DNA of 64,000 nucleotides from contig CM097886.1 in NCBI GenBank assembly GCA_044892525.1, forward strand, positions 82,398,001 through 82,462,000, read 5' to 3'. The position numbers and the translations under genes are program-made. Source of the stretch: Schmidtea polychroa (lineage: Eukaryota). Shown piece after piece: positions 19,359 to 48,849 of the stretch (within the stretch, counting starts at the first letter, position 1; every line of letters starts with the position of its first letter). The notes under the pieces are model-generated. The model had not been told where the DNA came from, did not search any database, and saw only the letters and a list, made by a program, of their open reading frames with translations.

Positions 19359-19624
19359 AATTATAAGTAGTCATTATCAAATTGAAAAATATCAATAAAA
19401 AATATAAATCAAAACTCAGTTTGATATAAATTGATTTTGCAAAGGATTTCCCATTGTGCCAATCAATAATAGTCAATGGGGAAATGAGTGTCGTAGATAA
19501 ATTTGTTCAATATTGCACACCAACTTTTCCTAGGAAATTATTTTTCACAAACACATAGAAACAATTCAGAGTGGAAAATTTATTTTACAATAAAACAATT
19601 TCAGTTTAAAATTCGAAATTGCCC

Positions 19625-22600
19625 ATGCTTTCACTAGTGAAAAATTATTACGGGTACGCAACTAGAAAACCAACTTTATCGAAAAGTAAATCACTTGACA
19701 CTAAACTTCACCGATGCCTTTCCACCTATCAATTGATATTTTATGGAATTTCTCATATGGTGGGAGCTGGAATTTATATACTAACTGGGCATATTATTAA
19801 GGAAAGAGTTGGTCCAGCTGCAAATTTATCATTTGCACTTAGTGGACTAATTTCAATTTTTACTGGACTATGCTACTGTGAGTTTGCTACTTTAATTCCA
19901 AAATCTGGATCCTGTTATACTTACACTTATCTGATGATGGGAGAATTACCCGCATTTATCATTGGTTGGACAATGATAATGGACTTAACTATTTCATTAT
20001 CAAGTATTTCCAAGGGATTTAGTGGAGCAGTAAATTTATTGTGCAATGATGCTGTGAAAAATTTTACTGACAGATATGTTCCTTTAACTCCTAAAAGTGA
20101 GATTTGGGATACGTCCGTAGATTTGATAGCAATGTCTTTACTATTTGCTTTGTTTTTACTTACACTAACGGGTGCAAATATTTCACTGAATATAAATGTA
20201 ATTTTAGCTCTTATACAATTAGTACTTTTGACAACGATAATTATTTCATGCTTTATCTATGGAAATAGTCAAAACTATGTTGCCGATGGTGGCTATCTAC
20301 CGTTTGGATTTGCTTCTATTTTTCAAGGAGCTGGAATAGCGATATTTGCATATTCTGGTTTTGAATGTCTCGCAAATTCTGCTGAAGAAACAAAGGAACC
20401 TAGAAAAAGCATTCCCATCGCTCTTTTTGTGTCGTTAGGTATAGTTATTTTGTTATACGTTTTAGCTTCAACTGGTTTGTCTTTTATGGTTCCACGGTTG
20501 CAAATAAATCAAAAAGCTCCTTTTATTTCAGCTTTTAATGGGAGGAATTTACTTGAGCTGAAATGGTTAACTGGCGCTGCTACTCTTTTAGCTACAGGCG
20601 CGTCAAAATTAGCAGCTATTTATGTTATTCCAAGAATGATTTATGCCATGGCAAAAGATGGGCTTTTGTTTAGATTCCTTGGCAAAGTTAATGAAAGTTC
20701 CCAAGTTCCAATAAATTCACTTGTAGTGGGGATATTATTTTCTACAATATTAGCCATGTTTGTTAGAATAGAGATTCTCGCTGATATAACATCAATGGGG
20801 ATTATTATTTCATTCGTAGTCATTGGAATAGATTTAATTATTTTACGATACCTTTATAATGAAGAATTAGAAGAAACAGAATCTAATGAATCTCAAAGTT
20901 TGGAAATGAGATTTACAGTACATTCAGGTTTAGCAAATCGTACTTGTTTTAAAGGGTTTTTGATTTGCCTTTTATTTTCAATTCTTTTTATGGGATTATC
21001 TGTTCTTTTACTGTATCCAATTCATTTTATATCAGGGATTATTTGTAGTGTGTTCTGTTTGATTATAATATTGGTAATGACCTCACTTCTTTCACTTTAC
21101 AAACCGATATCAATAAAAGATGCTTTTAAAGTAAGTGAAATGATTGTTTAAAACATCTTTGCAATTAATGAGTCTAGACTCCATTGATGCCTTTGACGCC
21201 AATTATAACAATCACTTTAAACATATGTCTTTTAATCAACCTTCCGGTCGGAACTTGGATTAGATTTTTAATTTGGATTTTGATTGGTAAGTTCAAACAA
21301 ATTATATAAATTAATTAGAAAATTATAAATTACAATTATTAATTATTAAATTGAATAGATTTTTAATTCAACTTTGAATGAACATTATAAATCATGAAGC
21401 TATTTTTACCAAATTTTTACTAAATATTTTTATAAACATTACAAGCTTTGTGAAACCCAGTGCCAATCCCAGTAGTAGACTAGTTTCGAGCTTTTGGCTC
21501 TTATCAGTACTAAAGCTCGAAACTAGTCTACTATTGGGATTTGCACTGGGTTTCACAAAGCTTTTAATGTTTATATTATTTTAATGTTAGACATCCGTAA
21601 GAAAAAAATTTACAACATTATAAATATTTTTCTTTTGATATTCAATACTTCAATTTTACATTTTCAATAGAAATATTAAATTAGTTTAATCAGTATTATT
21701 TTTTACAATTTAAAAATTTTTATTAACGGGGGGAGTCCGTAGGTTGGTACATGCTGACGAATTTGTAATTGTAATATTTATTTAGGGCATTTATTTCCGA
21801 AAATATTTAGGTTTTTCTGTATTGCACTTTTGCAATTATTGAAAATTATCTTTATGACCAAATGATACATAAAAATAATTTTCTTATTATTTTATCAAGA
21901 AATTCAATAAAATTAATTATTTTTCTGTTCACATTTGAGCAGTTTTTTTTTAATTTTAATTATTTTCATTTCTTTCTTAACAAAAATTTTGGTTCTTCCT
22001 TTTTTATTTGCTATATTTAGGGAAAAAGATTGGAAATTTTGTATTAAATAGGGAAAACATTGATTTATAGTCAAAATGTAGATAAATGAAATAAATTACT
22101 AATTTTATTGAGCATGGTGATGCATTTGAGAATAGTTTCGGTATTGAAAATGAGAAACAAATTAATGGATTAATTATGAAAGTGACAAACCTTGACGGCG
22201 CTTCGAACCAAAACAAGCATTATGTAGGTGCTTTAAAGCCTTATAGTTCCATTTATTTAGAATACGAATTCTTTAAGATGCTTACTCAAAATAATGAAGA
22301 TACTTCCTAATATCAAATATGGTTAAGTGTAGACCCTGCTCATATTTAAACATTATTGCACAAAAAGTTAGTCAATAAATAAATATTTATCAATATGCAT
22401 TTTTTTTGTGTTCACTCATTTTTATCTTCATTTATTTTCAGATTATTGATATTTTTATTTACTTGACACGAAATTTTTCTAAACACTGGAAAATTTGTAT
22501 CAAAAAATAAAAAAATAAAAAAATTTATTTATTGTCTAAAAATAAATGAAGGTAAAGGAAATTAAAAGTACAAATAGATTAATGGGGAAAAGAATTAAAT

Positions 22601-24670: not shown

Positions 24671-27584
24671 TGTTAGACGCAATTAAATTCAAGTCTTCTT
24701 CAAGCATTTATTTTTATAACAACTTCAAAAATTGAGCCGGTTACTAGAATATTTAAACACCGAGGCGTGATAATTATTAATATTAATGTAATTACTGGTC
24801 ATACATTTAATTGATTTAATTTAATATAATTTAATATAATATGATATAATTTAATATAGAATTTAAATATACAAATTTAACAGAAATAATTATTTCTACT
24901 AACTGATCTCACTTCTACCATTTAACCATATTAATTTTATATAGAGATTTACTAACTCCTTACATCCCCCCTTCTTTAAAATGCTTTAACTTTTCTATAT
25001 TCCTCGTTATTTTTCTCCCGTTTTCGTCTGTTAATAAATAACTTCTTTCATGATTTCGTTTTATTACTGTGTATGGTCCTTCATATCTCTCGTGATCTTT
25101 GTTTCTAATTTCTTGTTTCACCAATACTTTGTCCCCCATTTCTAAGTTCCTAGTTGTGCCAATTTCTTTCGCTTGCTGTCTTTTAGCCTCTAATTTCCGC
25201 ATGATTTCATTTCTATCCACTTCATTATTACTATGCCATTGCGATCTATTAATCTTTCTTCCAAATATAATTTCTGCTGGACTCACTCCAGTAGTTTTTT
25301 GAGCTGTCGCATTTAAAACGTATTCTATATCAGGTATTAATTCTGCCCAGCTTTTTATAACTCCTTCTCTGAGTGACGCGTTAATATAGTCTCTTATAGT
25401 ACGAAATTGTCTTTCAATTACACCATTAGTATTATGATGATACGGACTCGAAAATATCAACTCAATTCCTGCTGCCTTTTCTAGTTCTTTAATGCTATTT
25501 GCTTCGAAATTTTTTCCACAATCAACATGTAGTTCCTTAGGGGCTCCAAATTTCAATATCCAATTATTTAACAAAACTGCCTTTATTGTATTTTCATCTT
25601 GCTTTCTAATAGGAGTTAGAGATATCTATTTACTGTAATGATCGATTATTGCACAAATATATTTTTCTCCTCTGAAGGTTTCTCTTAATGGACCGCAAAT
25701 ATCCATGTATATTTTCTCCATAGGTTCTGAAGCTTGAATTACTTGGGTTTTTTCTTTTGACTTTGTAGTTAAAACTTTGTTTTTCTGGCATGCTTCACAT
25801 ATTGAAATAGTATCTTTTACTTCATTTAGCAAATCTTCCATATCAAAATTGTTCCTAATATATTTCATAACTTTTTCTACTCCTGCGTGGCATAATAATA
25901 AATGTGTTTCCTTAATCATTTCTCGTCTTTTTGTTTCTGGTATCCATATTTTGTTTTGATTGGTATAGATAATATTTCCTTTTAACATATATTTATTATT
26001 TTTCCTTTCATTTATTTGATCTTTTATATCTTGTATTTCTGCATTATCTCTTTGCCATTCATTTCCATTATTTTCGGTCATCAATGTTAACAATCTAGTT
26101 TTTAATCGCCCTGATTTGGGGTTATCATGGTCCATCAAACATTGTACACATTTGTCGCATGTGTTTCTAGACAGCATATCTGCATTCGTATGCGCCGTAC
26201 ATTTTCTGAACTCCATTTTTATGTCTAAACTGCTCAAGTAATTTATCCACGTTTGGAACTGTGCTGTTATCGGCTTCTTTGTCGTTAACATAAAAGTTAT
26301 TGCTTTATGATCAGTGCGCAAAACAAACCGTTTACCGTATAAATAATGGTTGAAATGGCGACAGAAATAATATATAGCCAAAAGCTCTTTTCGTGTTATA
26401 CAATATCCTCTTTCATGGCTACTCATTGAATGGGATCCATATGCAATAACGTGTTCATGCCCCATTTCATCTCTTTGTGATAATAAAGCTCCAATTGTAT
26501 CAAAGCTTGCGTCTGTATCTAATATGAATTCTTTCTCGAAATCTGGAAATACGAGAATTGGCGCTGTAGTCAACGCCATTTTCATTTCTTCGAAAGCTTT
26601 CTCACATTCCTCAGTCCAGATTATTTTTTCACTATTGCTTAGTAGTGTGTATATATACCCAACCAACACAACCCTCCCAACTAAAACATACCTCCATTAT
26701 GCTTAAACCATTAGAAAAACAACATAAAACCTATGCTTTTAGGTTTTATGTTGTTTTTCCAATGGTTTAAGCGTAATGGAGGTATGTTTTTGTTGGGAGG
26801 GCTGTTTTGGTTGGGTATATATACACACTACTTTGCTTCCACATATGCTTTCTAGCGCTCTTGATTTTGTTGCATATTCCTTAATAAATCTCCGATAATA
26901 GTTACATATACCTAAAAAGCTTCTCAAATTCTTTATACACTTAGGCCTCTGAAATGATTTAATAGCCTCAATTTTACTTTGATCTGTCCGAATCCCCTGA
27001 CTGTTAATAATGTGCCCTAAAAACTTTACTTCGCTCTTTAATAACTGACATTTTTCTGGGTTGATTCTCAATTTAGCTTCCCTTATTTTCTCTAGAACTT
27101 TTCCAAACACATTGTAATGTTCTTCAATTGTTCTTGTAAAAATTAAAATATCGTCTAAATACACCATAACTCCTTCTTTCCATAGATCTTTCAATATTTT
27201 TGTCATTAATTCTTGGAATGTACCCGGTGCCGCCGCAATGCCAAAAGGCATTCTATTAAAACAAAATTGCCCTTCTTTAGTAGAAAATGCTGTCTTTTCT
27301 TGCGATTCTATGTCCAATTTCACCTGATAATAAGCGTTCCCAAGGTCTATAGAACTAAAGTACTTAGATCCATGTAATGTATCTAGAATTTCTTCTACAT
27401 TCGGCATAGGAAAAGCTTGTCTTTTAGTAATCTTATTAAGCTGTCTAAAATCTAAACAAAGTCTGATATCTTTTTTGTCTTTTTTCCACACGCATACTAA
27501 CGGCGTATTCCAAGGTGAATTGCATCTTCTTATGATATCATTATTTTCTAAATTTTTTATAGCAGCATTTACTAACTCCTTGCA
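24671..27584 (-). mobile_element. Gypsy/Ty3 LTR retrotransposon with a 5' internal deletion
   Basis: 5-bp TSD AAGAT (24666-24670 and 27585-27589). 3' LTR 24964->24671 (TGTAAG...CTAACA) preceded by the PPT AAAGAAGGGGGGA. RT (YLDDILI), RNase H (DTDAS...KELLAI) and integrase (H-C-CC zinc motif, LHVDCGKNF, NGVIER) follow in order. The 5' end keeps only ~18 nt of LTR (TGCAAGGAGTTAGTAAAT) fused to RT. Confidence 0.92.
26641..26832. mobile_element. 192-bp palindromic mini-element with AGTAGT...ACTACT ends and 6-bp TSD (Polinton-type MITE candidate)
   Basis: 93-bp arms with 5 mismatches and a 6-nt loop. TSD TTGCTT at 26635-26640 and 26833-26838. Removing 198 bp restores the Gypsy pol frame (ICGS-NSEKIIW). 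Confidence 0.85.
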
Positions 27585-28097
27585 AAGATGATAAATCATC
27601 AGAAGTGAATTCATCTCGCAAAACCCTAGCATATTATTTCCAAAGGACTATTGACGACTCACTTTCTGCAGTGGTAAAAAATCGCTTGCCATTCCAAATA
27701 TTTTGCACTTTATTTGATTTAAGAAGACTTCTTAAAGCTAAAAACTATGCGGTGCCGAAATCTGCAAATTCTATAAAAAACTTTGTAATGGAGTATGATG
27801 TTAAAATTAGCATTGAAATTCGTGGAAATATTTCAGACCAGATAAAAATTGGTGCTCCATTTAGTCTTACCTTAGATGAGTGAACTTCCATTAAAAATCG
27901 AAGATATATGAACATTAATGTTCATACAGCCGGAAACAAATTTTGGAATCTAGGTTTCACTCGGGCACATGCAATAACTCCGAATAAAATATTTTCATTA
28001 CTCAATTTAAATATTATTGTTATTCCTCATAATCACATAAGTTACATCCATTTTACCAATAAAAAATGTATACTGTATTTTATAAGGAATTATTAGC

Positions 28098-30607: not shown

Positions 30608-30964
30608 AAATAGTTCACCTTTCGATTCGGTTCCGCTCTCTGATCCAATCTCTTTTAACACTCCTTGTCTAACTTTTCAGTTTTTCTTATAATCCTTTTC
30701 TTTTAATTTTTTCCTCTAACTCCTACTGTCAGTTTCTTCTTCCCTACCTAAGGCTATCGCCGATTATGTGAATTTTGATTGTCCTTATATACTCCCATAA
30801 TCGGTGTAATTGTCCAATTTTTGACATAATTGGTTTTGACTTCTTTCGTTTTCATTCCCTAATTAGCTATTTCTGTTGACCCTCTTCGTAATTCCCCTTC
30901 TTTTGTTTACCCTTGTTTATTAGGCTCATTGGATTATTGCCCTCTGAATTCCTCGTTTGTTTAC
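30608..30964 (+). mobile_element. 5' part of an LTR-like unit interrupted by the Polinton-like element (continues at 40592-40994)
   Basis: Colinear with the 41-45 kb tandem unit up to ...cctcgtttGTTTAC. The remainder resumes exactly at GTTTACccttcc (40592). Confidence 0.85.
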
Positions 30965-31069
30965 AGTAGGTAGTTAGGAGCCCGCTGGAACAATTACCCC
31001 CCCCCCTGGGGGGGATAAACTGTTCCAACTCACATTTTTTGCTTTCAGGGATTTTTGGTCCAAATTTTT

Positions 31070-31680
31070 TTTTATCAGACTATAGTGAGGTGGGTCTCCT
31101 TGGTCCTGGGATTTTCAATACAAAATTTTTTTTTCAATACAAAAAGGCGGTCTTCAATAAAAAAGCCAGGGATTATTCACACTATAGTGAGGTGGGTCTC
31201 CTTGGTCCTGAGAATTTCAATAGAAAAAGGCGGTCTTCAATAAAAAAGCATGGGATTTTCAGACTATAGTGAGGGGTCTCGATTGATCCTGGGATTTTCA
31301 ATACAAAATTTTTTTTTCAATACAAAAAGGCGGTCTCAATAAAAAAGCATTGTAATTTAAGGTCTCAGGATATTTTCAATACAAAAAGCTGGTCTACACT
31401 AAAAAAGAGTGGTAATTTAAGGTCTCAGGATATTTTCAATACAAAAAGACGGTCTTCAATAAAAAAAGAGTGGTAATTTAAGGTCTCAGGATAGTTTCAA
31501 TACAAAAAGGTGGTCTACACTAAAAAACAGTGGTAATTTAAGGTCTTAGGATATTTTCAATACAAAAATCCGACTATCACTAAAAAAGCATGGAATTTTC
31601 TAGGTCAATTCAGGTGGGTCTTCTTGGTCCTGAGAATTTCAATAGAAAAAGGTGGTCTACACTAAAAAAGCGTGGTAAAT
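31070..31680. repeat. Tandem ~60-61-bp and related longer repeats inside the left TIR (mirrored at ~39860-40460)
   Basis: aatttaaggtctcaggatattttcaatacaaaaag recurs at ~31354, 31414, 31475 and 31536. Related actatagtgaggtgggtctc units lie upstream. Confidence 0.9.
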
Positions 31681-32093
31681 TTTTTAAAATAAAGCAAATT
31701 ATGGGTCTAAAAATTGAATTACAGTAAATTATGGGCTAAGATTTTAAAATTAAAGTAAATTAAGGTTCATATTTTTGAATTAAAGTAATTATAGGCTCAA
31801 ATTTTCGAATTAAAGTTATCAATGGGCTCAAGTAAGTTAATTAAGGTTCAAATTTTTAAATTAAAGTAAATAATGGTTCAAATTTTTAATTAAAGTAAAT
31901 CAAGGTCCAAAATTTTAAATTAAAGCAATGAATGGGCTCAAATAACTAAATTAAGGTTCTAAACAAAGTTAATTAAGGTCTAAATTTTAAAATTAAGTAA
32001 TCAATGGTAAAAAAATTTTAAATTAAAGTAATAATTTTTAAATAAGTAAATTAAAGTAATGTAATAAGTAAATTAAAGTAAGAAAGTAATAAG

Positions 32094-32423
32094 AAATATC
32101 ATAAAAATTTAATTAATGGACAAGAAAAAATTCTAATCATTAATCATCCAGTAAATTTTAAAAAAAATACTGATAATTCAAGTTGAATCAACTAAGATAA
32201 TAAATTAATAAGATAAAATCTAGTAGATAATTGATTTAGATTGAATAAATTAATTTTATTTCAATTAATTTATTCAATCTAAATCAATTATCTACTAGAT
32301 CTTATCTTATTAATTTATTATCTTAGTTGATTCAACTTAAATTATCAGTATTTTTTTTAAATTTACTGGATGATTAATGATTAGAATTTTTTCATGTCCA
32401 TTAATTAAATTTTTATGATATTT
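32094..32423. repeat. ~330-bp near-perfect palindrome just inside the left TIR
   Basis: Arms ~32094-32255 and 32263-32423 are reverse complements with a few mismatches. Loop TTATTTC. Confidence 0.9.
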
Positions 32424-33812
32424 ATTTTGAATAATTTAAATTTTTACAATTATTTAATCAATTTTTACCAAGTTATTGATGCCTTGAATTCAATTAATTT
32501 TTTCATCCAATTTTTCAAGTGAAGAGTATTTACTTTTAAAGATCAATTTGTTAATACAATGTTGTTGGTTGTTAGTAGTTGGTAGTTGATATCTGATTGA
32601 CTTTTTTAGATTTTGATAAGAAGATAGTGTATGCGATGAAGAATGTTTTGTATTTAATTGCTATTATTTTTATGTGTGGTTAGTTGATTGTTGGTACTAA
32701 GTTGTTGGTATCTTGTATCTGGTAGTTGGTACAGTGTTGTTAATTTCTCGATGGGTTTTGATGGTGGTTGTTAGTAACTAGTTGTAGGTATCTGGTTGTA
32801 AGTGTTTAGTATTTAGTTGTTTGAAACCTAGTTGTTAGTACATGGTAACCAGTTAATGGGTAGGTGAAGGGATTGAGAGTTACCAATATTGCAAGTGAAG
32901 AGGATTTTCTTTTAAAGATCTATTTGTTAGTACTTGATTGTTGATTGTTAGTACATGTTCGTAAGTTACTGGTTGATGATACTATGTTGTTGGTATCTTA
33001 TATTTGGTAGTTGGTACAGTGTTGTTTACTGATTGTTGTTATATAGTTGTAGGTTGATAATGCTTAGTACCTGGTTGATGGTGGTTGTTAGTACTTGGTA
33101 GGTTGTAGCTAGTTGTTAGTACTTAGTAGCTAGTTAATGGATTGGTGGGGGTTGAGTGCGACCAATACCCTAACGACTAATACCCTTACGACCAGTACCC
33201 TTAGGGAGTCAAAACATCCTGTCGGATAAACCCAGAGTATATATAATTGTTGCGGGTGGTTACTCGGATGACCCCTTTTAGTGCAGTTTTCAGTCTAGAA
33301 GGATGAATGCCCACATCGATTTCGCTCGTCCTTCGTTTTGTCATCGCCGAGCAGGACCCGCACATAACCTACATTCCAACATAGCACCCGTGAATTGCTT
33401 CACGTTGGAACTGTGCTATGCCGGCGAGACGCCAGTAAGCAGGTGAGCCAGCTCCTTCGGACTACTCCTTACTGAGGCCTCGACTTCCCAACCCTGACTG
33501 CCGATAGAAGGACTTACGTCTAATCATTCCATCGCCCATCGCAAGGTTCCTAGCTGGGGTTGCCAACTGACTAATGCTCCTCATTTTCTACGACTCTCAA
33601 TGTTATTCACCAGTTTTAGATCGACTATTTTAAGATAAACAAAAAAACACATATATAGACGAAAATGGTTTATTGTCAGAATTATTATACAAGTACATCG
33701 AACACATATATATATCAAAATTCCTAAGAATAGGGAAAACACAAGGGTAAGCAATGATGTCAGAAGATGTCCAGGTCTCTCTAGAAGATGAGGCCAGTTT
33801 ACGGAGCAATTC

Positions 33813-34592
33813 TCATTTTTCCCACTCCGAGTCGGCGAGTAACTCGTTTAAATCAAAGAATTCGGCGGCGTTTTCTTCCCATGTTACCCCGGCGGCGGAG
33901 ATGACTCGCCCTGGGATTCCGGTCGTTAGATCGACTACTATTGGATTGCTGTTGCCGTCGACTGGGGTGACGGTTGATGGCAGAATCCGTTTGGTGGAAG
34001 CCCGCTCTCGTTGCTTTCGTTTTCGTTCGGCTCGCGACAGTTGCCGACGTTTAGGTTTTGAAGCTGTTGAGGTTTGCACCATTGAGGACGAAGCGGTGTT
34101 TGGCTGCACTTTATTAGTTCCGGTGAGTACAATGTCTGGACCGCTGGGAGAGAGCTCGGTCTCCACGCACCCATGGCAGGACTTCCCGAGTGGAGATGAA
34201 GGCCCGCCCGAGATCTCGTGGTGCGCTGGAAAAAGATTACTGGCTTCATTAATTGGGATCTTCGCGATTCTCCTAGTGGTTGCTGCTTTGACGTATAACT
34301 TGTGCAGCGCCTCCGACTGCTCCTTTATTAGACTTCTCTGCGCCCGACTTTCGGAAATTAGCGCATCTCGACAGTGCTCGCTGCGGTGCAGCTTCTTCTG
34401 AGCCTCTTTCATCTGGGTAGGACTAAACCATGTCCCCTCTAACTCGTCTATTTTTCTTTTGTACTTTCCGATTTGGGCCTGCAGATCCTTGATGATTGAA
34501 TTCTTGTCGGAACAAGAGAAACAAGGTCTGAGAATGGTCTTGGAATTGGGTAACATTTTGGGTGACTGCAAGAAAAGATGGAAATGAACCAT
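33813..34592 (-). CDS. Orphan protein (CxxC + coiled coil + basic tract + acidic tail), 259-aa ORF, probably the last exon of a spliced gene
   Basis: Only long ORF in the element, and more GC-rich than its surroundings. Diverged homologue at 50335-50690. A pyrimidine tract plus CAG lies just upstream of the conserved region in both copies. Confidence 0.65.
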   Translation of the reverse strand: MVHFHLFLQSPKMLPNSKTILRPCFSCSDKNSIIKDLQAQIGKYKRKIDELEGTWFSPTQMKEAQKKLHRSEHCRDALISESRAQRSLIKEQSEALHKLYVKAATTRRIAKIPINEASNLFPAHHEISGGPSSPLGKSCHGCVETELSPSGPDIVLTGTNKVQPNTASSSMVQTSTASKPKRRQLSRAERKRKQRERASTKRILPSTVTPVDGNSNPIVVDLTTGIPGRVISAAGVTWEENAAEFFDLNELLADSEWEK

Positions 34593-36483
34593 AAATCAAA
34601 TCAATTAGAAGGTCGTCGTCTGGTCACATTTATATTTTACTGATCATAGTTGGTTTCATAGACATGAACGGGTGTATCAGCCAAAGAAATTATACTGCGC
34701 TATGTGTCCTCGTTCCCTTTGGGTCATTAATTGTAAGAAAATAAATCAGTCAAGCGCGATTTTGCACAAGTAAGGAGAGGTATTACTACTGGTGAGAGGA
34801 ATTCTAGGTCGAGGAAACTACGGTTATCTAAATCGCTTGAAGTTAGTAATTAACGTTTGAAGAGAGTTGAATTACATTGCCGACTTTTCCTAACGAATAG
34901 TTTCGATGAATGTATCCTGTACGTAGGTCGATGAATTTTAGATTAATTATTTAGGGTGAATAGAAGTCCATAAATTATTCTTAATTAGTTCATTTATGAT
35001 GTACGGGAAGACATTATAAAAACAATTTTTAATTATTTATTTATGATAGGCGACAAATTATTCAACATGAGATAATAACTAAATTAATCCTACTAAGTAG
35101 ACAAAATCAGTCTGACAGTTGGCTATTAGTTCCGACCAGTGGGAATCTAATGACTGCGAGTGAATTCATTTGATAACCCGAAAATTCCAACTGACACGTC
35201 CGGTCGGGTTTGTCATGAGTACATGTCGGCGTGAATCTACACACCGTGATTAGCTACTGTAGTGTGTCTGAAAACGGGTGACGCATGCAAGTTTTTATTT
35301 CTCATACTTAATCCCACTCCTAATCACTAACTGGTGCCCTCAACTGTTTACCTACTGGCATGTTCTCTGGCTACTATCTCGATCAACTCACTGCACAGAT
35401 GCTCCGATTTCCCTACTCATGATGATGTCATACTAATTCTCACGGAAATGCTGGAAAAATTATGATTCTCGGTATTGCAAGAGTTGGGTATAATTTGCCC
35501 CCCAGGGGGGAACTGCCTAACTCCTCAATTGCGGTGTATTGATCCGTTCCGGATATTTTGGAGGTTTCCTACCTATCCTCGCTGGATTTTCAACTCCATG
35601 AAACACGGTAATTTATGTTTACTAGGTAAGGATTATCATGTTAGAGTGGTTTGTAGAAAAGAAAAATATATTTTTTGACTCGATTTGATTGCGTTTTACT
35701 CTTGAGATTATTTGGCACTAAACAGTTTATGTAATTAGAAAAATTTGTGGAAGTTAATCCCTTTATATAATTCTAAAAGCAATTGAAGCAAATCATTTTT
35801 TGCAATTCAAAAATAGTTGAAGTAACCCGTTTTACGTAATTCGAAATTTTATGCGAGACAACTTGTTCATGGAATTCTAACGCTCATCCGAGACTACTTA
35901 TTTTCTGTAATCCCCTGCAACTACATCTTTGAGAGAACACGTAGACGAGGAAACAATAGCACGGAAGGCCATAAAACACAGCAGGTATAAATTTCGAGTG
36001 AAACGTACGAATATCGAAGATATGTCACCTATAGCATTTGAACGACTCTCGATGAGCAACCTGCATAGAGCTTTAGAACGATAGAGGAAATTAGAACTTA
36101 GTAGAAACGATAATCTTGAGACGATAGTGTGACTCCCTCAATCACTGCGCGAATACATAAAAACTCTCTGATCGTTTCTTCCTACATCTGTTTTCCATTG
36201 CTATACGACTTTCAATTTTCTGGCAACATTTTCCTATGGAATTTAGTCGCACCTTCAGCGACGGACCCGTGAGGAAGCCCCCACATTACGGCCCGAATCA
36301 GCTGCGTGATTGAAATACTCTAGGCCCACCGGTGGAGCTCCCGAGGGCACCTCACACCATGACACTAGAGTATCCAACGCCACGTTTCTCGAAAATTTGA
36401 ATGGCATTAAATAATAACTCATTAAAACAGTTCATAAAAGTCAATAATTCCTAGAAATCAATCATGCATAGCAAATCATTTAT

Positions 36484-37254
36484 TGTTAAATACTAAATCG
36501 TTAAATTACACCAAGTATTCGGAATCAAACGAAAAGAAAACAAGTTCTTTAAATTAAAATTATAATTAAATCATACGCATAACTATTACTTTAAAATTCA
36601 AATTATGAAATCAAAAGATCCTTACCGAGTGTTTAATAGAGGTATAGGCTGAGTCGAAAAGGGGTACTGTGTCGAAGTAATAAATGTTCGAAATTATCTA
36701 GATTCGGCTGAAATTTCTTGGATTTCCGGAATAGTCCTCGTGAGTTGCTGTGGATTGATTGTTTAATTGCGGTTTCGTCGTAGAATGGATCTATTGAGGT
36801 GGTTAGATTAACTGTCGATTATTTTAAACTTTACTTACCTATTGAGGTGGTTAGATTAACTGTAATTATTATGATTTTAATACCTGCTTATATATTAATT
36901 TTTTGTTTGCGCGGACCAATCAGAATTGAGTACCGCTTAATTTTATTAATTTAATTTATTTTCCTTGTTTTAGAGTTATTTCTTCTTATTTTCTTTATTA
37001 AAATTATGTTTTTTATTTATTTTCCTTAATTTTCCTTATTATTTATTATATTTTGCGTTATTTTCTGTCATTCTAATGTCCTATTTCAATTTTTCTTATT
37101 TTTATATTTTTTTCTTGTTTTAATTCTTATTTCTAATTATTGTTTTTCTTATGTTCTATTCTATTTTATTCGTCAATCTATTTATTTTATTTCTTATTTT
37201 TACTTTAGTTAAATTCGACCTAATTTCCCAGCTACCCTTCGATTCAGCCCAACA
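36484..37254 (-). mobile_element. Possible solo LTR inside the Polinton-like element
   Basis: Bounded by TGTT...CCCAACA (the reverse complement of the TGTTGGG LTR start seen elsewhere). Flanks TTAT/TAAT are not a perfect TSD. Confidence 0.3.
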
Positions 37255-37559
37255 TAATAAAACTGATCAACAATAAGTATTTATTGAATACGATTTTTAC
37301 ATTGCAATAATAAGTCAGTAGTAATCAATTAAAAGAAGAATGTTTTGTAAATTAGAATTCATTAGTCTTTCATTGTAATTTAAATTATCCTGAATTCCAC
37401 GTGTTGTTTTAAAGTGGTTGAGTTGTGTTTTTTTGATGAAAATCAACATTTTTGTTAAATTTAGACATTTTGAAAAGGTTTTTCTACTGATTTTAATTAA
37501 ACATATTTTTGAAGACAGATAAAAAATTAATTTAAAAAACATTTTATAAAATACAATGA

Positions 37560-39100
37560 AGAATATTTAGTAGGTTTTTGTAGGTATCTAGTTGTTTGAG
37601 AGTTAGTTAGTACGTGGTATCATGTTGAAAGTATTTGGTACTTATTTGTTAGCACCTAGTTAAAAATATTTAGTAACCGATTGTTGGTAACTGTTGAATT
37701 ATTATTATTATTATTATTATTCCATTAAAATTTTCATAAATATTTTTCATTAAAAATTAACTTAAAAAATTTTACATTTAAAATTAACCTAAAAAAACTT
37801 CCATTTAAATTTTCATTAAAAATTACATTTCTCAAAAAAGTTGGTGGTTATTCAATCTTTTGATAATAAATTTAAAAATCTTACTTTAATTTACTTATTT
37901 AGCTTTAATTTAAAATTTGAACCATTGGTTAATTAATTTTAAATTTTGAACCTTAATTTTCCTTAATTTATCCTTAATTTACCTAATTATTCTTTATTTC
38001 TTAATTTTACACCATAATTTACTTAAGAACTAAATGTAATCCTTATTTTCATATTTAACCAATAATTTCATGTGGTCATTGATTAATTGACGAAGATTTG
38101 CATCTAAAATTAACATTGAAAATCCCAGAAAAACTTTCATCTTAAATTGACTTTAATATTTTAGATCATTGATTAGTTAATTTAAAAATTAAACATTAAT
38201 TTACCTATTTAACAAATAATTTCATGTGGTCACCTGGTTGTAAGTGTTTGGTATCTAGTTGACAGTGCTTAGTACTTGGTATCTAGTTGTTAGTACTTGG
38301 TTGATAATGCTTAGTTGCTGGTTGTTGTCGGTTGTGAGTAGTTGGTATCTGGTAGTTAGTTGTTAGCTGGTTGTAACTAGTTAATGGGTAGGTGGTTGTA
38401 GGTACTTGGTAGCAGGTAACTGATTGTTAGTATCTAGTTGTAGGTATCTGGTTGATGTTGGTTGTATTTACTTGGTATCTGGTACCTAGTTGGTTGGTTG
38501 TTTTTGGTTGTTAGTATCTAGTTGCAGGTACTTGGTAGTTGGTTAATAATGCTTAGTACTTGGTTGTTGTTGGTTGTATGTACTTGGTAGGTAGTTGTAG
38601 GTACTTGGTAATTAATGCTTAGTACCTGGTTGTTGTTGGTTGTTAGTACTTGGTAGGTGGTTGCTAGTTGTTAGCTGGTTGTAGCTAGTTAATGGGTAGG
38701 TGGTTGTAGGTACTTGGTATCTAGTTGTTAGTATCTAGTTGTGGGTATCTGGTTGATGTTGGTTGTAAGTAGTTGGTAGGTGGTTGTCGGTACTTAGTAG
38801 TTGGTAATTAATGCTTAGTACCTGGTTGATGTTGGTTGTAGGTACTTGGTAGTTGGTTGTTGTGGGTTGTAAGTAGTTGGTAGGTTGTAGCTAGTTGTTA
38901 GTTGGTTTTTTTTAGTTGTTAGTACTTGGTAGGTGGTTGTAGGTACTTGGTTGATAATGCTTAGTAGCTGGTTGTTGTCGGTTGTGAGTAGTTGGTATCA
39001 GGTTGTTAGTAACTAGTTGTAGGTATCTGGATGTAAATACATGTTCGTAAGTTACTGGTTGTTGGTACTAAGTTGTTGGTTTGTTGTTGAATTATTATTA
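37560..39100. repeat. GT-rich degenerate short-period repeats (gttgttagtacttggta-like); also at 32530-33160
   Basis: Strongly C-poor on the plus strand. Duplicated together with the following AT-rich block (37690-38000 vs 39085-39500). Confidence 0.85.
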
Positions 39101-41224
39101 AAATTTGTCTTTGAAAAATATTTCATAAAAATTTTCATTAAAAATTATCTTAAAAATTATTCCATAAAAATTTCTATTAAAAATTAACTTAAAAAATTAT
39201 TCTATAAAAATTTCCATTAAAAATTACCATTGAAAAATATTTCATTAAAATTTCTATTAAAAATTACTTAAAAAATTATTTGATAAAAATTTTCTTTAAA
39301 AAGTTTCAATTCTCAAACACCTTCTATTATTTCAACTTTTTGTTAATAAATTTAAAAATCTTACTTTAATTTACTTATTACATTACATTAATTTACTTAT
39401 TTAAAAATTATTACTTTAATTTAAAATTTTTTTACCATTGATTACTTAATTTTAAAATTTAGACCTTAATTAACTTTAATTTAATTTTTTAGAACCTTAA
39501 TTTAGTTATTTGAGCCCATTCATTACTTTAATTTAAAATTTTGGACCTTGATTTATTTTAATTAAAAATTTGAACCATTATTTACTTTAATTTAAAAATT
39601 TGAACCTTAATTTACTTAGTTGAGCCCTTAATTAACTTTAATCTTAAATTTTGAACCATTATTTACTTTAATTTAAAAATTTGAACCTTAATTAACTTAC
39701 TTGAGCCCATTGATAACTTTAATTCGAAAATTTGAGCCTATAATAACTTTAATTCAAAAATATGAACCTTAATTTACTTTAATTTTAAAATCTTAGCCCA
39801 TAATTTACTATAATTCAATTTTTAGACCCATAATTTGCTTTATTTTAAAAAATTTACCACGCTTTTTTAGTGTAGACCACCTTTTTCTATTGAAATTCTC
39901 AGGACCAAGAAGACCCACCTGAATTGACCTAGAAAATTCCATGCTTTTTTAGTGATAGTCGGATTTTTGTATTGAAAATATCCTAAGACCTTAAATTACC
40001 ACTGTTTTTTAGTGTAGACCACCTTTTTGTATTGAAACTATCCTGAGACCTTAAATTACCACTCTTTTTTTATTGAAGACCGTCTTTTTGTATTGAAAAT
40101 ATCCTGAGACCTTAAATTACCACTCTTTTTTAGTGTAGACCAGCTTTTTGTATTGAAAATATCCTGAGACCTTAAATTACAATGCTTTTTTATTGAGACC
40201 GCCTTTTTGTATTGAAAAAAAAATTTTGTATTGAAAATCCCAGGATCAATCGAGACCCCTCACTATAGTCTGAAAATCCCATGCTTTTTTATTGAAGACC
40301 GCCTTTTTCTATTGAAATTCTCAGGACCAAGGAGACCCACCTCACTATAGTGTGAATAATCCTTGGCTTTTTTATTGAGACCACCTTTTTGTATTGAAAA
40401 AAAAAATTTTGTATTGAAAATCCCAGGACCAAGGAGACCCACCTCACTATAGTCTGATAAAAAAAAATTTGGACCAAAAATCCCTGAAAGCAAAAAATGT
40501 GAGTTGGAACAATTGCATAATAAAAAGTTGGAACAATTTACCCCCCCCCCCCTGGGGGGTAATTGTTCCAGCGGGCTCCTTACTACCTACTGTTTACCCT
40601 TCCAAATTGTCGTGCTCAGGTTTTCTTCATTGCTCGGGTTCTCCATTAGCTCGAACTTCCCATTAGCTCGGGTTTCCCATTAGCCAATTAATTAATTAAT
40701 TATTCGTTTTTTCATATTTGTCTGTTTTACGACCCTTTCTAAATATTTTCTAACAATTTCTTGCTTACTGTCTTCTTCACCATCCCTTAATCTACCCCTC
40801 TTCCGTTTTCCAGCTTCAATTTCGATAACTTTTCACTTTATTCCACTTCCTCAGGTTTGCGCATTTTTTCCATTTCATGTCTGATTGTACCCTTTTATAG
40901 TTCTTTTTTATCATATCTTTCTTTGCCATTGCTTCTCTGCTTGACCGCCATTCAATTTCGGTTTTCCTTTTAATCAGAACTATATAATTTAATANNNNNN
41001 NNNNNNNNNNNNNNNNNNNNNNNNNNNNNNNNNNNNNNNNNNNNNNNNNNNNNNNNNNNNNNNNNNNNNNNNNNNNNNNNNNNNNNNNNNNNNNNNNNNN
41101 NNNNNNNNNNNNNNNNNNNNNNNNNNNNNNNNNNNNNNNNNNNNNNNNNNNNNNNNNNNNNNNNNNNNNNNNNNNNNNNNNNNNNNNNNNNNNNNNNNNN
41201 NNNNNNNNNNNNNNNNNNNNNNNN

Positions 41225-42193
41225 TAAAATCAACCGTTGGTTACTCTGACTCCACGTGTTCCAAAATCAATAAACACAAACTCCCAACCTATATTTGTTT
41301 TATAACAATTCACAACTCAACAATTAATCACACTGTTGGTTAATCACAATTCTTACACAATTTCAGATCGAACTCCCTCTGGAAGGTCTCGGCCTTGTAC
41401 GATTTAAAAAATAGGTTTCACCTTTTGTTTGATTCCGCTCTCTGATCCGAACTCTTTTAATATTCCTTTCTGACTCCTAAATTCCTCTTATAATTCCTTT
41501 TTCCTTTTTATTTTTATTCCTCGAACTCCTATCGTCTGTTTCTTCGTATCCCTACCTAAGGCTATCGCCGATTATGTGAATTTTGAGTTTCCTTATATAC
41601 TCCCATAATCGTTGTAATTGCCCCATTTTTGACCTAATTGGTTTTGACTTCTTCAGCTATCATTCCCTAATTGACTATTTTTGTTGACCCTCTTCGTAAT
41701 TCCCCGTCTTTTGTTTACCCTCGTTTATCCGGTTGTTTGGATAATTGCCCTCTGAATTCCTCGTTTGTTTACTCTTCCAAATTGCCGTGCTCGGGTTTTC
41801 TTCATCGCTCGGGTTCTCCATTGGCTCGGGCTTCCCATTAGCTCGGGTTTCCCATTAGCCAATTAATTAATTAATTAATATTTTACGTTTTTCCACATTT
41901 GTCTGTTTTACGACCCTTTCTACACATTTTCTAACAATTTCTTGCTCACTGTCTTCTTCACCATCCCTTAATCTATCCCTCTCCCGTTTTCCAGCTTCAA
42001 TTTCGATAACTTTTCACTTTATTCCACTTCCTCAGGTTTGCGCATTTTTTCCATTTCATGTCTGATTGTACCCTTTTATAGTTCTTTTTTATCATATCTT
42101 TCTTTGCCATTGCTTCTCTGCTTGACCGCCATTCAATTTCGGTTTTCCTTTTAATCAGAACTATATAATTTAATAATTTACTTTTAAAACATC

Positions 42194-42278
<85 letters not shown>

Positions 42279-44373
42279 GTGTTGGGTTTTATGATATTAA
42301 AATCAACCGTTGGTTACTCTGACTCCACGTGTTCCAAAATCAATAAACACAAACTCCCAACCTATATTTGTTTTATAACAATTCACAACTCAACAATTAA
42401 TCACACTGTTGGTTAATCACAATTCTTACACAATTTCAGATCGAACTCCGCTCTGGAAGGTCTCGGCCTTGTACGATTTAAAAAATAGGTTTCACCTTTT
42501 GTTTGATTCCGCTCTCTGATCCGAACTCTTTTAATATTCCTTTCTGACTCCTAAATTCCTCTTATAATTCCTTTTTCCTTTTTATTTTTATTCCTCGAAC
42601 TCCTATCGTCTGTTTCTTCGTATCCCTACCTAAGGCTATCGCCGATTATGTGAATTTTGAGTTTCCTTATATACTCCCATAATCGTTGTAATTGCCCCAT
42701 TTTTGACCTAATTGGTTTTGACTTCTTCAGCTATCATTCCCTAATTGACTATTTTTGTTGACCCTCTTCGTAATTCCCCGTCTTTTGTTTACCCTCGTTT
42801 ATCCGGTTGTTTGGATAATTGCCCACTGAATTCCTCGTTTGTTTACCCTTCCAAATTGCCGTGCTCGGGTTTTCTTCATCGCTCGGGTTCTCCATTGGCT
42901 CGGGCTTCCCATTAGCTCGGGTTTCCCATTAGCCAATTAATTAATTAATTAATATTTTACGTTTTTCCACATTTGTCTGTTTAACGACCCTTTCTACACA
43001 TTTTCTAACAATTTCTTGCTCACTGTCTTCTTCACCATCCCTTAATCTACCCCTCTCCCGTTTTCCAGCTTCAATTTCGATAACTTTTCACTTTATTCCA
43101 CTTCCTCAGGTTTGCGCATTTTTTCCATTTCATGTCTGATTGTACCCTTTTATAGTTCTATTTTATCATATCTTTCTTTGCCATTGCTTCTCTGCTTGAC
43201 CGCCATTCAATTTCGGTTTTCCTTTTAATCAGAACTATATAATTTAATANNNNNNNNNNNNNNNNNNNNNNNNNNNNNNNNNNNNNNNNNNNNNNNNNNN
43301 NNNNNNNNNNNNNNNNNNNNNNNNNNNNNNNNNNNNNNNNNNNNNNNNNNNNNNNNNNNNNNNNNNNNNNNNNNNNNNNNNNNNNNNNNNNNNNNNNNNN
43401 NNNNTAAAATCAACCGTTGGTTACTCTGACTCCACGTGTTCCAAAATCAATAAACACAAACTCCCAACCTATATTTGTTTTATAACAATTCACAACTCAA
43501 CAATTAATCACACTGTTGGTTAATCACAATTCTTACACAATTTCAGATCGAACTCCCTCTGGAAGGTCTCGGCCTTGTACGATTTAAAAAATAGGTTTCA
43601 CCTTTTGTTTGATTCCGCTCTCTGATCCGAACTCTTTTAATATTCCTTTCTGACTCCTAAATTCCTCTTATAATTCCTTTTTCCTTTTTATTTTTATTCC
43701 TCGAACTCCTATCGTCTGTTTCTTCGTATCCCTACCTAAGGCTATCGCCGATTATGTGAATTTTGAGTTTCCTTATATACTCCCATAATCGTTGTAATTG
43801 CCCCATTTTTGACCTAATTGGTTTTGACTTCTTCAGCTATCATTCCCTAATTGACTATTTTTGTTGACCCTCTTCGTAATTCCCCGTCTTTTGTTTACCC
43901 TCGTTTATCCGGTTGTTTGGATAATTGCCCTCTGAATTCCTCGTTTGTTTACTCTTCCAAATTGCCGTGCTCGGGTTTTCTTCATCGCTCGGGTTCTCCA
44001 TTGGCTCGGGCTTCCCATTAGCTCGGGTTTCCCATTAGCCAATTAATTAATTAATTAATATTTTACGTTTTTCCACATTTGTCTGTTTTACGACCCTTTC
44101 TACACATTTTCTAACAATTTCTTGCTCACTGTCTTCTTCACCATCCCTTAATCTACCCCTCTCCCGTTTTCCAGCTTCAATTTCGATAACTTTTCACTTT
44201 ATTCCACTTCCTCAGGTTTGCGCATTTTTTCCATTTCATGTCTGATTGTACCCTTTTATAGTTCTTTTTTATCATATCTTTCTTTGCCATTGCTTCTCTG
44301 CTTGACCGCCATTCAATTTCGGTTTTCCTTTTAATCAGAACTATATAATTTAATAATTTACTTTTAAAACATC

Positions 44374-44413
<40 letters not shown>

Positions 44414-45409
44414 GTGTTGGGTTTTATGATATTAAAATCAACCGTTGGTTACTCTGACTCCACGTGTTCCAAAATCAATAAACACAAACTCCCAACCTAT
44501 ATTTGTTTTATAACAATTCACAACTCAACAATTAATCACACTGTTGGTTAATCACAATTCTTACACAATTTCAGATCGAACTCCCTCTGGAAGGTCTCGG
44601 CCTTGTACGATTTAAAAAATAGGTTTCACCTTTTGTTTGATTCCGCTCTCTGATCCGAACTCTTTTAATATTCCTTTCTGACTCCTAAATTCCTCTTATA
44701 ATTCCTTTTTCCTTTTTATTTTTATTCCTCGAACTCCTATCGTCTGTTTCTTCGTATCCCTACCTAAGGCTATCGCCGATTATGTGAATTTTGAGTTTCC
44801 TTATATACTCCCATAATCGTTGTAATTGCCCCATTTTTGACCTAATTGGTTTTGACTTCTTCAGCTATCGTTCCCTAATTGACTATTTTTGTTGACCCTC
44901 TTCGTAATTCCCCGTCTTTTGTTTACCCTCGTTTATCCGGTTGTTTGGATAATTGCCCTCTGAATTCCTCGTTTGTTTACCCTTCCAAATTGCCGTGCTC
45001 GGGTTTTCTTCATCGCTCGGGTTCTCCATTGGCTCGGGCTTCCCATTAGCTCGGGTTTCCCATTAGCCAATTAATTAATTAATTAATATTTTACGTTTTT
45101 CCACATTTGTCTGTTTTACGACCCTTTCTACACATTTTCTAACAATTTCTTGCTCACTGTCTTCTTCACCATCCCTTAATCTACCCCTCTCCCGTTTTCC
45201 AGCTTCAATTTCGATAACTTTTCACTTTATTCCACTTCCTCCGGTTTGCGCATTTTCCCATTTCATGTCTGATTGTACCCTTTTATAGTTCTGTTTTTAT
45301 CATATCTTTCTTTGCCATTGCTTCTCTGCTTGACCGCCATTCAATTTCGGCTTTCCTTTTAATATGAACTATATAATTTAATAATTTACTTTCAAACCCT
45401 CAACAATAG
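41225..45409 (+). mobile_element. Tandem array of four ~1-kb solo-LTR-like units separated by (AAT)n
   Basis: Equivalent positions at 41225, 42298, 43405 and 44433, with near-identical units. The last unit, 44415-45405, is TGTTG...CAACA flanked by the 4-bp TSD ATAG. Confidence 0.8.
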
Positions 45410-45751
45410 TAATAATAATAATAATACCCTTATGAGATGTTGAGTGTAACCAGTACTCTTGTGAGCAATACTCATAAGGGGACAAAAATATCTTGTCGGA
45501 TAAACTCAGATTATACCTTTTGTTTGATATACATAATATAAGGTTTTGAAAAAATTCAAAGGTTTTTAACCCTTTGAAGGTTATTGAACCTCCATAGACC
45601 TTCGATGGTCTCAAATACTCACCATTCAAATACCTTTCGAATGAGCTATTAAATAATAAAACCCATTGGCGGGAATTTAAATGTTAAAAATTTAGCATGA
45701 CTCTTTGCATAACTCACCGCGTGACTCATACGACCTTGAGAATGACCTTGA

Positions 45752-48153
45752 ATGAGTCATAAAACGAGTCATATAACCTTGAATATGGAGCGGACGACTC
45801 TATACTCAATGCCAGAAAATAAATATATCGAATTTAAAGACTGGAGTAAAACTTTAAAACAGCAGTTTGTTGTCTACGCGGACTTTGAATCGATATTACC
45901 TCTAGATGACAAACACTTCCAAAAACATGAGCCGATTGCATCTGAATTTGTGCTTCTTCATCAAGGTTGTTCAATCCGAAATAAAACATTTGTTGGGAAA
46001 AACTGTATCATTCAGTTCATACAAGCATTGGATGATAAAGCTACAGACATAGTTTATCCGTGGTATAAAATTAATGGATCAAAGGAAATGATGGAACTCA
46101 CTTGGGAACAGCAGGAAGAATTTACAAACCAAACTCATTGCTACCTTTGTAAAAAGATCATCAATATACCTGTTCGAGATCATGATCATTTTACTGGTCA
46201 ATATCTCGGAGCAGCATGTTAAGATTGCAACTTGGCTAGAAGAATCAATCCGTCTTTACCTGTTGTATTTCATAATCTTCGTGGATATGACATTCATCAT
46301 ATATTAAAATATGCAATTGGAAAATTCCCGATTGAAATTTAATTGTTATTCCTCAATCAACAGAAAAATTTCTCACACTTACAGCGACATCGAAAGGCAG
46401 AAGAATTAGATTCATTGATTCTTTAGAATTTTTAAATAGCAGCTTGACAAATTTATCAAAAAACTTGCCACGTCTTCCACTGACCTCAGATGTTTTCGAA
46501 TCACAGATGATGACTTGTAAAACTATTTTTCCTTATGATATGGCTACGTCAATGGATGTTTTACAGTCAATAACAGCATTACCACATATTTGCGAAGGAG
46601 AAGATTATATACATGCAAATCAAATCTGGCGACAATACAACTGTGAAATATCTGAAGTTGGATGTTTTTCTATTAGCAGGTATTTTTGAGGCTTTCAGAG
46701 AAAAAACATTTGACAAAGATGGACTTGAGGCTCTGTCGTTTGTTTCCATATCTGGATTACGTTGGACATCAGCTATTAAACAATCAACTGAACCGATAGA
46801 ACTTATTCAAGATCCAGAATTTTACCGTTTATTTGAAGCTGGTATTTGTGGTGGAATGATATTTATCAACAAACACCATGTTGAAGCTGATGAATCCACA
46901 CAAATGTTATACCTAGATGTTAATGATTTATATGGATGGGCTCTGTCGCAAAAACTTCCTATTGGTGAATTTAGATGGTTAAAAGATCAGACTGAAATGG
47001 ATAGTATTATTAAAAGATGTATGAATGGAGATGAGTTTGATGGAGATCGTGGATATGTTTTGGAGGTTGACATCGTCATTCCAGATAGTATACAGGATAA
47101 ACTAGATGATTTACCTATAGTTCCTGAGCTTTGTTATCCGCCTGGAAGTAAAGTTGAAAAGTTGTTATTAACACACGAACCAAAGACCAATTATGTGATT
47201 AATAGTAGAGTTTTGACTGAATGGTTGAGTTACTACACAAAAGTCACAAAAGTTGATCGCGCTGTAGAATTCAAGCAAGTAGCTATTTTCAAAGGCTATA
47301 TTGATTACAATACTCAAATGAGAGCAGCTAGTACAGATTCATTTCAGCGAGATTATTATAAGTTAAAGAACAACAGTTTATACGGTAAAACTGTGGAAAA
47401 CCTTAAGAAACGTATAAACCTGAGATTATGCAGCAAAAGCAAAAGATTGATAACTTATTGTAGTAATCCTATGTATCGTCGTAGAATCAAGATTGCGGAT
47501 GATTTCATTGCTGTTATACTTGATAAGGAAATGGTGTGTTTAGATAGACCAATGTATATTGGACAAACCGTACTTGATTTATCTAAACTTCGTATGTAGC
47601 AGTTTCAATATAAAGAACTACAGAGTTATAGAGAAAAGTTAAATTGTCAAATTAATATCGTAGCCGGTGACACAGATTTCTTCTTTTAAGAGTGTAAAAA
47701 TATTGATTTACGCTTATAACTGTATCCAAAAATGATTGCCGATGGGCTCCTCAGAAAAAATTTGTTCGGTAATCGGGAAAGTCAAGGATGACAATAAAGG
47801 AAATCAATATAAAGAATGGGTGTTTCTTCGACCCAAGTGCTACTCACTTCAAGGCGATAAAACACTCTAAAAGCCAAAGGAATAAGACTTACAAATTCAA
47901 GTCTTACACATGAAGCTTATAAAAAGTGTATACTGATGGTGGAACAGTCAGCATCCCACAAAAAAGAATAGGAAGTGTCAATCATCAGTTGTATACTTTC
48001 TTGACAGAAAAACGAGCTCTCCAATTTTTGGACGATAAAAGGTATTGGTACAATTCTAATGAAAGCTATACCTACGGTCACTATAAGATTTGTCAAATGC
48101 ATATTGCAACTGCTATGTCTAGAAATGAATGCAAATCGAAACAAGCACTTTAA
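45752..48153 (+). pseudogene. Protein-primed DNA polymerase B, Polinton/Maverick type, copy 1
   Basis: Exo I YADFES; zinc/endonuclease-VII-like insert (CYLC...VRDHDHFTGQYLGAAC..CNL); exo II FHNLRGYD; motif A YLDVNDLYGWA; motif B KLKNNSLYGK; motif C AGDTD. Multiple stops and frameshifts. Confidence 0.9.
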
Positions 48154-48474
48154 CAATTAAATTTATGTGAATAATAAATATATATTGTGAATTATTTGAC
48201 TTAGTTAATTAAAATGTGTTCTATCATTTAATTATTCATTTGTCCAATTAATTTAGATAATTAGTTTCAAGTAAGAAGTATTATTTTCGTGTTTATTTTA
48301 TTTATTTATTTATTTTATCAGAAAAAATTATTATCCGGTTTATTAAAATTAACTCAGCGTTTTATTTTATAATAAATTAAATAATTACTATTTAAAGATT
48401 TGATCAAATTGAAATATTCTTGTTATAATTTTTGTTCTTGGTAGAATAAATTAAATGTAAATGTAAAAAAAAAT

Positions 48475-48481
48475 AAATAAA

Positions 48482-48545
<64 letters not shown>
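48475..48545. repeat. (AAT)n microsatellite within an AT-rich tract
   Basis: Directly visible. Confidence 0.9.
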
Positions 48546-48849
48546 TATTAATAAATAAATATAATAATATTAATTATAATTTAAAATTTATTAAGATTTA
48601 AACCGAAGAAAATAAAAATATAATTAAATAGCATAAGTAATTAAAATAATTAATTAATTAATTATAATAAAATAACTAAATAGAAGTAATTAAATTAAAA
48701 TAATATAATAATAAATATATAATAAAATAATTAATTAATTAATGTAATGAATTTAAAATTAACAAAAGTATTAATTAAAATCAAATAATAATAACAATAT
48801 AATAAAAAGTAATAAATTAAATAGATGAAAGTAATTAAATTAAATTAAA

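Follow-up and report, generated by a model that had tools for sequence, protein, structure and literature searches.

The stretch of DNA analysed here (the window) comprises 64,000 nucleotides of the Schmidtea polychroa genome (assembly GCA_044892525.1, contig CM097886.1, positions 82,398,001 to 82,462,000 of the forward strand) and contains a Polinton-derived element of 9,627 bp at 30965-40591 (coordinates are those of the window). The element starts with AGTAGGTAG, ends with CTACCTACT and is flanked on both sides by the 6-bp target site duplication GTTTAC (30959-30964 and 40592-40597), assigned by sequence inspection and, on the left, by the 6-bp rule that holds family-wide. Its terminal inverted repeats (TIRs), delimited by repeat alignment, measure 1,119 bp on the left (30965-32083, + strand, made of tandem arrays) and 1,233 bp on the right (39359-40591, - strand); they are 98.1% identical (1104 of 1125 aligned positions, 6 gap events), and the arrays within them are of 60/121, 30/81/110 and 82 bp. 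The element sits in a host array (30608-45426, established by unit comparison) of ~1-kb units which resemble the long terminal repeats (LTRs) of another retroelement; the Polinton-derived element splits the first of these units, and four more follow in tandem. The empty target site can be read in these downstream units, as GTTTAC-CCTTCC at 42833 and 44967, and as the variant GTTTAC-TCTTCC at 41759 and 43939. A preliminary description, made from the sequence of the window alone, had reported the termini, ~1.1-1.2-kb TIRs with tandem repeats, the GTTTAC duplication and an empty site in two units with a 1-nt variant in two others; all of these were reproduced. The ~1-kb host unit has 1,400 candidates in the genome, many of them as direct pairs 7.7-9 kb apart, and the two pairs fetched (7.7-8.3 kb apart) enclose long open reading frames (ORFs), one with a CCHC knuckle.

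The interior of the element includes a second mobile element, which the preliminary description had overlooked. The segment 33248-37254 (4,007 bp, - strand, delimited by copy comparison) has TGTTG...CAACA ends, is bordered by the 4-bp duplication TAAT (33244-33247 on the left, 37255-37258 on the right, by sequence inspection), and represents a solo LTR, inserted in the Polinton derivative, from a Burro-like gypsy retroelement of 29-30 kb. It is 96-97% identical to the LTRs of two full elements and to three other solo LTRs; in direct orientation, this LTR flanks two gag-pol elements of 29.9 and 28.6 kb (96.4-96.6% identity), and 4-bp duplications were found at all five other insertions (5/5). 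The one full element scanned encodes a CCHC knuckle, a viral fusion glycoprotein region (PF24664), protease, reverse transcriptase, RNase H and integrase, together with ankyrin, RING and MATH domains. In relatives the LTR site is unoccupied: of 103 anchor hits at the fetched loci, 61 run straight to the right flank; none of the remaining 42 continues into the LTR, and most of them correspond to a second copy of the motif (the 103 hits are not independent, both arms being counted). With up to 2 mismatches allowed, the genome contains a single instance of the junction between the LTR and the Polinton sequence.

The LTR encodes a protein of 247 amino acids (aa; 33813-34556, - strand, delimited by copy comparison) with a CxxC motif, a predicted coiled coil, an arginine-rich stretch and an acidic tail. 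Its start is the conserved methionine at 34556 (the ORF had earlier been bounded at 33813-34595), directly upstream of which lie a pyrimidine tract and AG. The preliminary description considered this ORF an orphan, a claim that does not hold: a first look at the genome yielded 7,044 candidates, and the 150 that were scored were all 78-100% identical. Many of the matches form direct pairs 20-28 kb apart, and the two LTRs of full retroelements both contain the ORF, as do other solo LTRs. The gene is under purifying selection, with ratios of nonsynonymous to synonymous substitution (dN/dS) of 0.09-0.21 against 20 diverged copies (0.02-0.10 in the first 105 codons) and of 0.24-0.57 against 14 close copies, all comparisons being among LTR copies, not Polinton copies. 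The CxxC motif and the arginine-rich stretch are invariant, and long helices are predicted (residues 16-41 and 46-97), in a fold prediction of low confidence (mean predicted local distance difference test, pLDDT, 56; predicted template modelling score, pTM, 0.22). Among 525 candidates with lengths of 135-431 aa (other lengths were outside this search), no homologue reached E ≤ 0.001, and none was detected with a 16-row profile against 1.84 billion representatives or in PHROGs; Pfam returned just a weak Rootletin coil match, and the best ESM Atlas hit (0.83) is a lead only. A 216-aa frame on the opposite strand (33751-34401) had no Pfam match; in 34 other copies, the longest frame on that strand shrinks to 85-150 aa in 11 and falls short of 200 aa in one further copy, so that it was treated as a shadow.

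The ends of the element belong to a Polinton/Maverick family of the S. polychroa genome. A 34-base degenerate pattern of these ends had 815 exact matches in the genome (412 forward and 403 reverse), and its reversed control had none. Elements were picked manually, using the first 100 rows of the end lists (mostly chromosome C1) and the best matches, which makes the figures that follow a sample and not a census. Among 19 end pairs scored by script, the 6-bp duplication was exact in 15 and exact within a TA run in one more; two pairs showed one mismatch and one had mirrored flanks. Among 26 facing end pairs up to 60 kb apart, judged by eye in the first 100 of 266 rows, 20 had an exact 6-bp duplication, four had mirrored flanks and two were unmatched. 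Nine pairs with window-type ends were selected for a visible 6-bp match and do not constitute an independent count of duplication length. Six bp is the length of the Polinton target site duplication (PMC8097293, PMC3014272), and a 2-bp TT reading of the insertion junction is ruled out by the tabulated duplications. The terminus AGTAGGTAG opens with AG and repeats TAG, exactly matching neither (AG)3 nor (AGT)2, the short 5'-AG repeats described at vertebrate Polinton termini (PMC8097293).

No Polinton core gene was found inside the element, as the preliminary description had stated: tblastn queries with 12 proteins from a relative that carries genes (L058/L059) gave no match in 30965-40591, which thus encodes no protein-primed DNA polymerase of family B (PolB), retroviral-like integrase, ATPase, protease or capsid proteins, and is not an autonomous member of the Polintons. 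The relative is a 16.3-kb copy of the family with a 6-bp duplication and Pfam matches to rve (8.8e-9), Pox_A32 (3.7e-7) and Peptidase_C5 (2.3e-5), as well as to Adeno_PX and TBP. Its 1,357-aa ORF is labelled here polymerase-like, given 49% identity over 437 residues to an ORF of the window that matches DNA_pol_B_2 (PF03175, 1.8e-17), and motifs that we take to be those of a polymerase. Another relative (L191/L192, G000:C1:140.24-140.25 Mb) has all 36 of 36 terminal bases in common with the window element; its integrase, ATPase, TBP-like and capsid-like ORFs are 95-100% identical to those of L058/L059, and it carries no polymerase. The ATPase/TBP block is mirrored in both of its arms, and a similar copy (L077) also has the integrase, ATPase, TBP-like and capsid-like genes without polymerase. 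A gene-less element (E4) has its first 34 bases in common with L058/L059. Copies combining the same ends with core genes exist, and these, with the 6-bp duplications, support the Polinton-type ends proposed in the preliminary description. Because its first 36 bases recur in a copy that carries genes, the element is likely to have been mobilised in trans, and it was probably integrated by the integrase of gene-carrying relatives, as its ends and duplications suggest.

A helper beside the element was considered and rejected: the polymerase sequences of the window (45752-48108 and 53418-55188) are broken fragments with only 38-57% identity to the polymerase of the family. These fragments belong to broken PolB pieces (45422-48570 and 53418-55188) of a different Polinton-like lineage, ahead of which (45422-45515) stands the same CGGATAAAC-CAGA motif that is found in palindrome arms (see below). 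An isolated stretch at 62943-63211 resembles the sub-terminal repeats of the family, and no family end was found in the 20 kb to the right of the window. Further Polinton lineages (L074, L004/L005, L021, L127, L132), whose proteins are 45-85% identical to those of L058/L059, act as targets for solo LTRs and for the TIR family of the window.

Once the LTR is subtracted, the element amounts to 5,616 bp without any gene. A 7-nt filler, AAGTAAT (32084-32090, by inspection), which repeats nearby TIR sequence, marks a deletion junction and links the left TIR to a 336-bp hairpin (32091-32426; 4 mismatches and 1 gap in 165 columns), which the preliminary description had also overlooked. The tip of this hairpin (32247-32271) consists of a 9-bp stem and a 7-nt loop; the same stem-loop exists in unrearranged relatives, where none of 55 hits showed a fold-back at it. 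Like the LTR-Polinton junction, the other junction tested, the hairpin tip is single-copy in the genome. The rest is a retained non-coding family arm on the - strand, recognised by colinearity: its inner part (32247-33247) ends in the conserved CGGATAAAC-CAGAGTATATA motif, and its outer part (37255-39358) contains GT-rich and AT-rich arrays. The CGGATAAAC-CAGA motif is present twice per arm in gene-less palindromes of the family and also just before the solo LTR, and the outer ~4 kb of the palindromes' ~7.4-kb arm shows colinearity with the segments 32247-33247 and 37255-40591. The 5.6-kb copy is a doubly deleted form of this family of 13-17-kb gene-less palindromes.

Gene-less copies predominated in the elements inspected. 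Polinton genes were present in two of 17 elements picked by their paired ends and absent from 15, ten of which have mirror arms of at least 3.5 kb with 89-99% identity (one was fetched incompletely); of nine further elements with window-type ends, one carried genes. Other shortened copies of the family (2.4-11.9 kb) have their own distinct joins and 6-bp duplications. We also observed ~16-kb palindromes with the polymerase as their only gene, and gene-less counterparts of these (L107-L111, L125, L126, L133-L150; e.g. G000:C1:162.19-162.21 Mb), the centre of which is a piece of 180-290 bp (~250 bp) with two inward-facing Polinton ends, mirrored flanks and no duplication. Palindromes with a common central piece are located at different loci; both outer ends were found at five of nine sites, and the outer 6-bp duplication was exact at three of these five and had one mismatch at two. 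The common central piece across loci and the outer duplications indicate that the family palindromes form before integration. Mirror-copy flanks extending for 1-9 kb were seen around other family elements (L083/L084, L112/L113, L114/L115, L116/L117), including WD40 exons resembling a host gene in L114/L115; no Polinton ends were seen at the outer limits of these flanks.

The element is very probably a gene-less Polinton/Maverick derivative, likely integrated by a helper, 4 kb of which correspond to a Burro-like solo LTR. Its history may have comprised three steps: a palindromic passenger would have been copied by the protein-primed polymerase of a helper and inserted into one of the ~1-kb LTR units; its centre would then have been lost at the 9-bp stem-loop, leaving the hairpin, together with most of the left arm; and a ~29-kb retroelement would have entered the right arm and been reduced, through recombination between its two LTRs, to a single one. 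Such collapse of full elements to solo LTRs is established for LTR elements in general. We lean, by a modest margin, towards shrinkage having occurred after insertion and not before it, because the hairpin junction is single-copy. Several points weigh against this history and the relationships behind it: the 1,357-aa ORF of L058 had no DNA_pol_B_2 match in Pfam or PHROGs; the capsid label of the 408-aa ORF, whose 120 scored genome matches were all 99-100% identical, is no more than a lead from the ESM Atlas (0.98; 24% of the cluster carries PF21738; searched with the 99.7% identical copy in L077), with no match in Pfam, PHROGs or PDB sequence searches; past the first ~35 bases, the TIRs of the window element and of L058/L059 are only 70-82% identical; and the deletions lack a near-identical sibling by which they could be dated, since the first 100 bases have no other match better than 92%.

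The strongest competing explanation places the shrinkage before insertion: the 5.6-kb form would be a defective-interfering-like product of extrachromosomal replication, generated by fold-back at the 9-bp stem and then a second switch of template, to the TIR, before being integrated as such. We regard it as a serious possibility, though the less probable of the two. The hairpin tip lies exactly on a pre-existing stem-loop, and the multi-kb palindromes of the family formed before integration, as their outer 6-bp duplications indicate. Panhandle and end-restoring models also exist for protein-primed replicons; panhandle-directed restoration of ends has been published as a model for adenovirus and PRD1 and is described as lacking direct evidence (PMC11886824). 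However, the uniqueness of the hairpin junction speaks against it, the short filler at the other junction would fit host end-joining, and an integrated palindrome that lost its centre by deletion between the mirrored 9-bp stems would end up with the same hairpin as a replicative fold-back, so that the two routes are indistinguishable here.

More tentatively, the Polinton of this genome could be a divided, defective-interfering population generated by fold-back during protein-primed replication, of which the window copy would be one captured fold-back, at a 9-bp stem, and whose passengers could ferry an LTR. Such a population might conceivably consist of full copies, polymerase-only palindromes, copies with only integrase and capsid, and gene-less palindromes, complementing each other through one set of ends; the ferried 4-kb LTR would then carry a selected regulatory gene. 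We consider this whole reading less likely than not.

Returning to the gene-less derivative with its nested LTR, the preliminary description had described it as a satellite-like derivative moved in trans by a Polinton/virus helper and keeping one accessory gene as cargo. The shared ends and the gene-carrying relatives lend good support to the helper in that proposal. Neither the 9.6-kb nor the 5.6-kb form gives a sign of spreading as a satellite, both junctions tested being single-copy; the cargo is rejected, and a cargo-carrying satellite appears highly improbable. The ORF is intact and under purifying selection, and insect Polintons with transposable element insertions have been reported to be still mobile (10.1101/2025.02.07.637071). 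But it is a fixed part of an LTR that is repeated in full retroelements and as other solo LTRs, the site is empty in relatives, the junction is unique and the selection signal stems from LTR copies; the ORF is therefore a gene of the LTR, present in this single Polinton copy. Most likely, what the window preserves is a fossil passenger rather than a carrier of cargo. The last alternative, raised as a caveat in the preliminary description, is a cut-and-paste foldback element with CAG...CTG ends and a 4-bp TTTA duplication, and its probability is negligible: such a reading suits the one junction that the window offers, but C precedes AGTAGGTAG at only 6 of 29 ends (from 30 loci), which excludes CAG ends, the duplications are of 6 bp and the ends flank Polinton genes.

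Other features of the window include three paralogous amino-acid permease exons (15575-17245, 19610-21151 and 59642-61210; DNA 69-72% identical), exons of a type IA topoisomerase host gene (TOP3-like; 6410-9119, - strand), pieces of a hAT-like transposase (3133-4739, + strand) and a broken gypsy pol (24960-27647, - strand) with a 192-bp foldback insertion inside it (26641-26832).

In itself, the window copy matters little: both of its components, the Polinton derivative and the solo LTR, are known kinds of element, here nested, and the 'orphan cargo' dissolves. It does warn that giant solo LTRs with genes of their own can mimic cargo in Polintons. The family is of wider value: its gene-less copies number in the hundreds, are often palindromic and show clean 6-bp duplications, and they form a natural archive of the way in which protein-primed elements rebuild their ends and give rise to defective passengers, a step said to lack direct evidence (PMC11886824). 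The LTR gene, for its part, encodes a selected protein without detected homologues.

Compared with known systems, the element is closest to Polintons. Kapitonov and Jurka reportedly described, in 2006, non-autonomous Polintons which keep their ends, lose their genes and are presumed to be mobilised in trans; the window copy is like them in its kept ends, its lost genes and its presumed mobilisation in trans. The 6-bp duplication, the long TIRs and the AG-starting ends of the window copy are those of Polintons/Mavericks (PMC6431247, PMC8097293, PMC3014272), and its 16-kb relatives carry an integrase, an A32-like ATPase, an adenain-like protease and a polymerase-like ORF. In contrast, the window copy is gene-less and its ends (AGTAGG) are one base off the vertebrate (AGT)2 (PMC8097293); most of the relatives inspected are also gene-less, many being palindromes with arms of 3.5-8 kb. 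No description of 13-17-kb gene-less palindromic Polintons was found in the literature (Repbase reports, subscription papers and supplements with repeat libraries, where these families may already have names, were outside the search). The retroelement is matched to Burro/GYPSM1 by described features, not by sequence against the named Burro-1 to -4: a size of ~30 kb, multi-kb LTRs, a fusion-protein region between gag and protease, and ankyrin and MATH domains (PMC6431247). It differs in that the scanned copy has MATH in a separate ORF downstream of pol, and that an ORF within the LTR is unmentioned in the text of the Burro section of PMC6431247. BIR and BCL2-like domains, which Burro/GYPSM1 elements have, gave no match in the nine ORFs scanned of this one copy, whose frames are broken. 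Both planarian Polintons and Burro are targets of PIWI-interacting RNAs (PMC8532177). The foldback element Galileo is similar in its long, internally repetitive TIRs and its many rearranged gene-less copies (PMC3573991), but it is a cut-and-paste element of the P superfamily, whereas the ends of the window family go with Polinton genes and 6-bp duplications.

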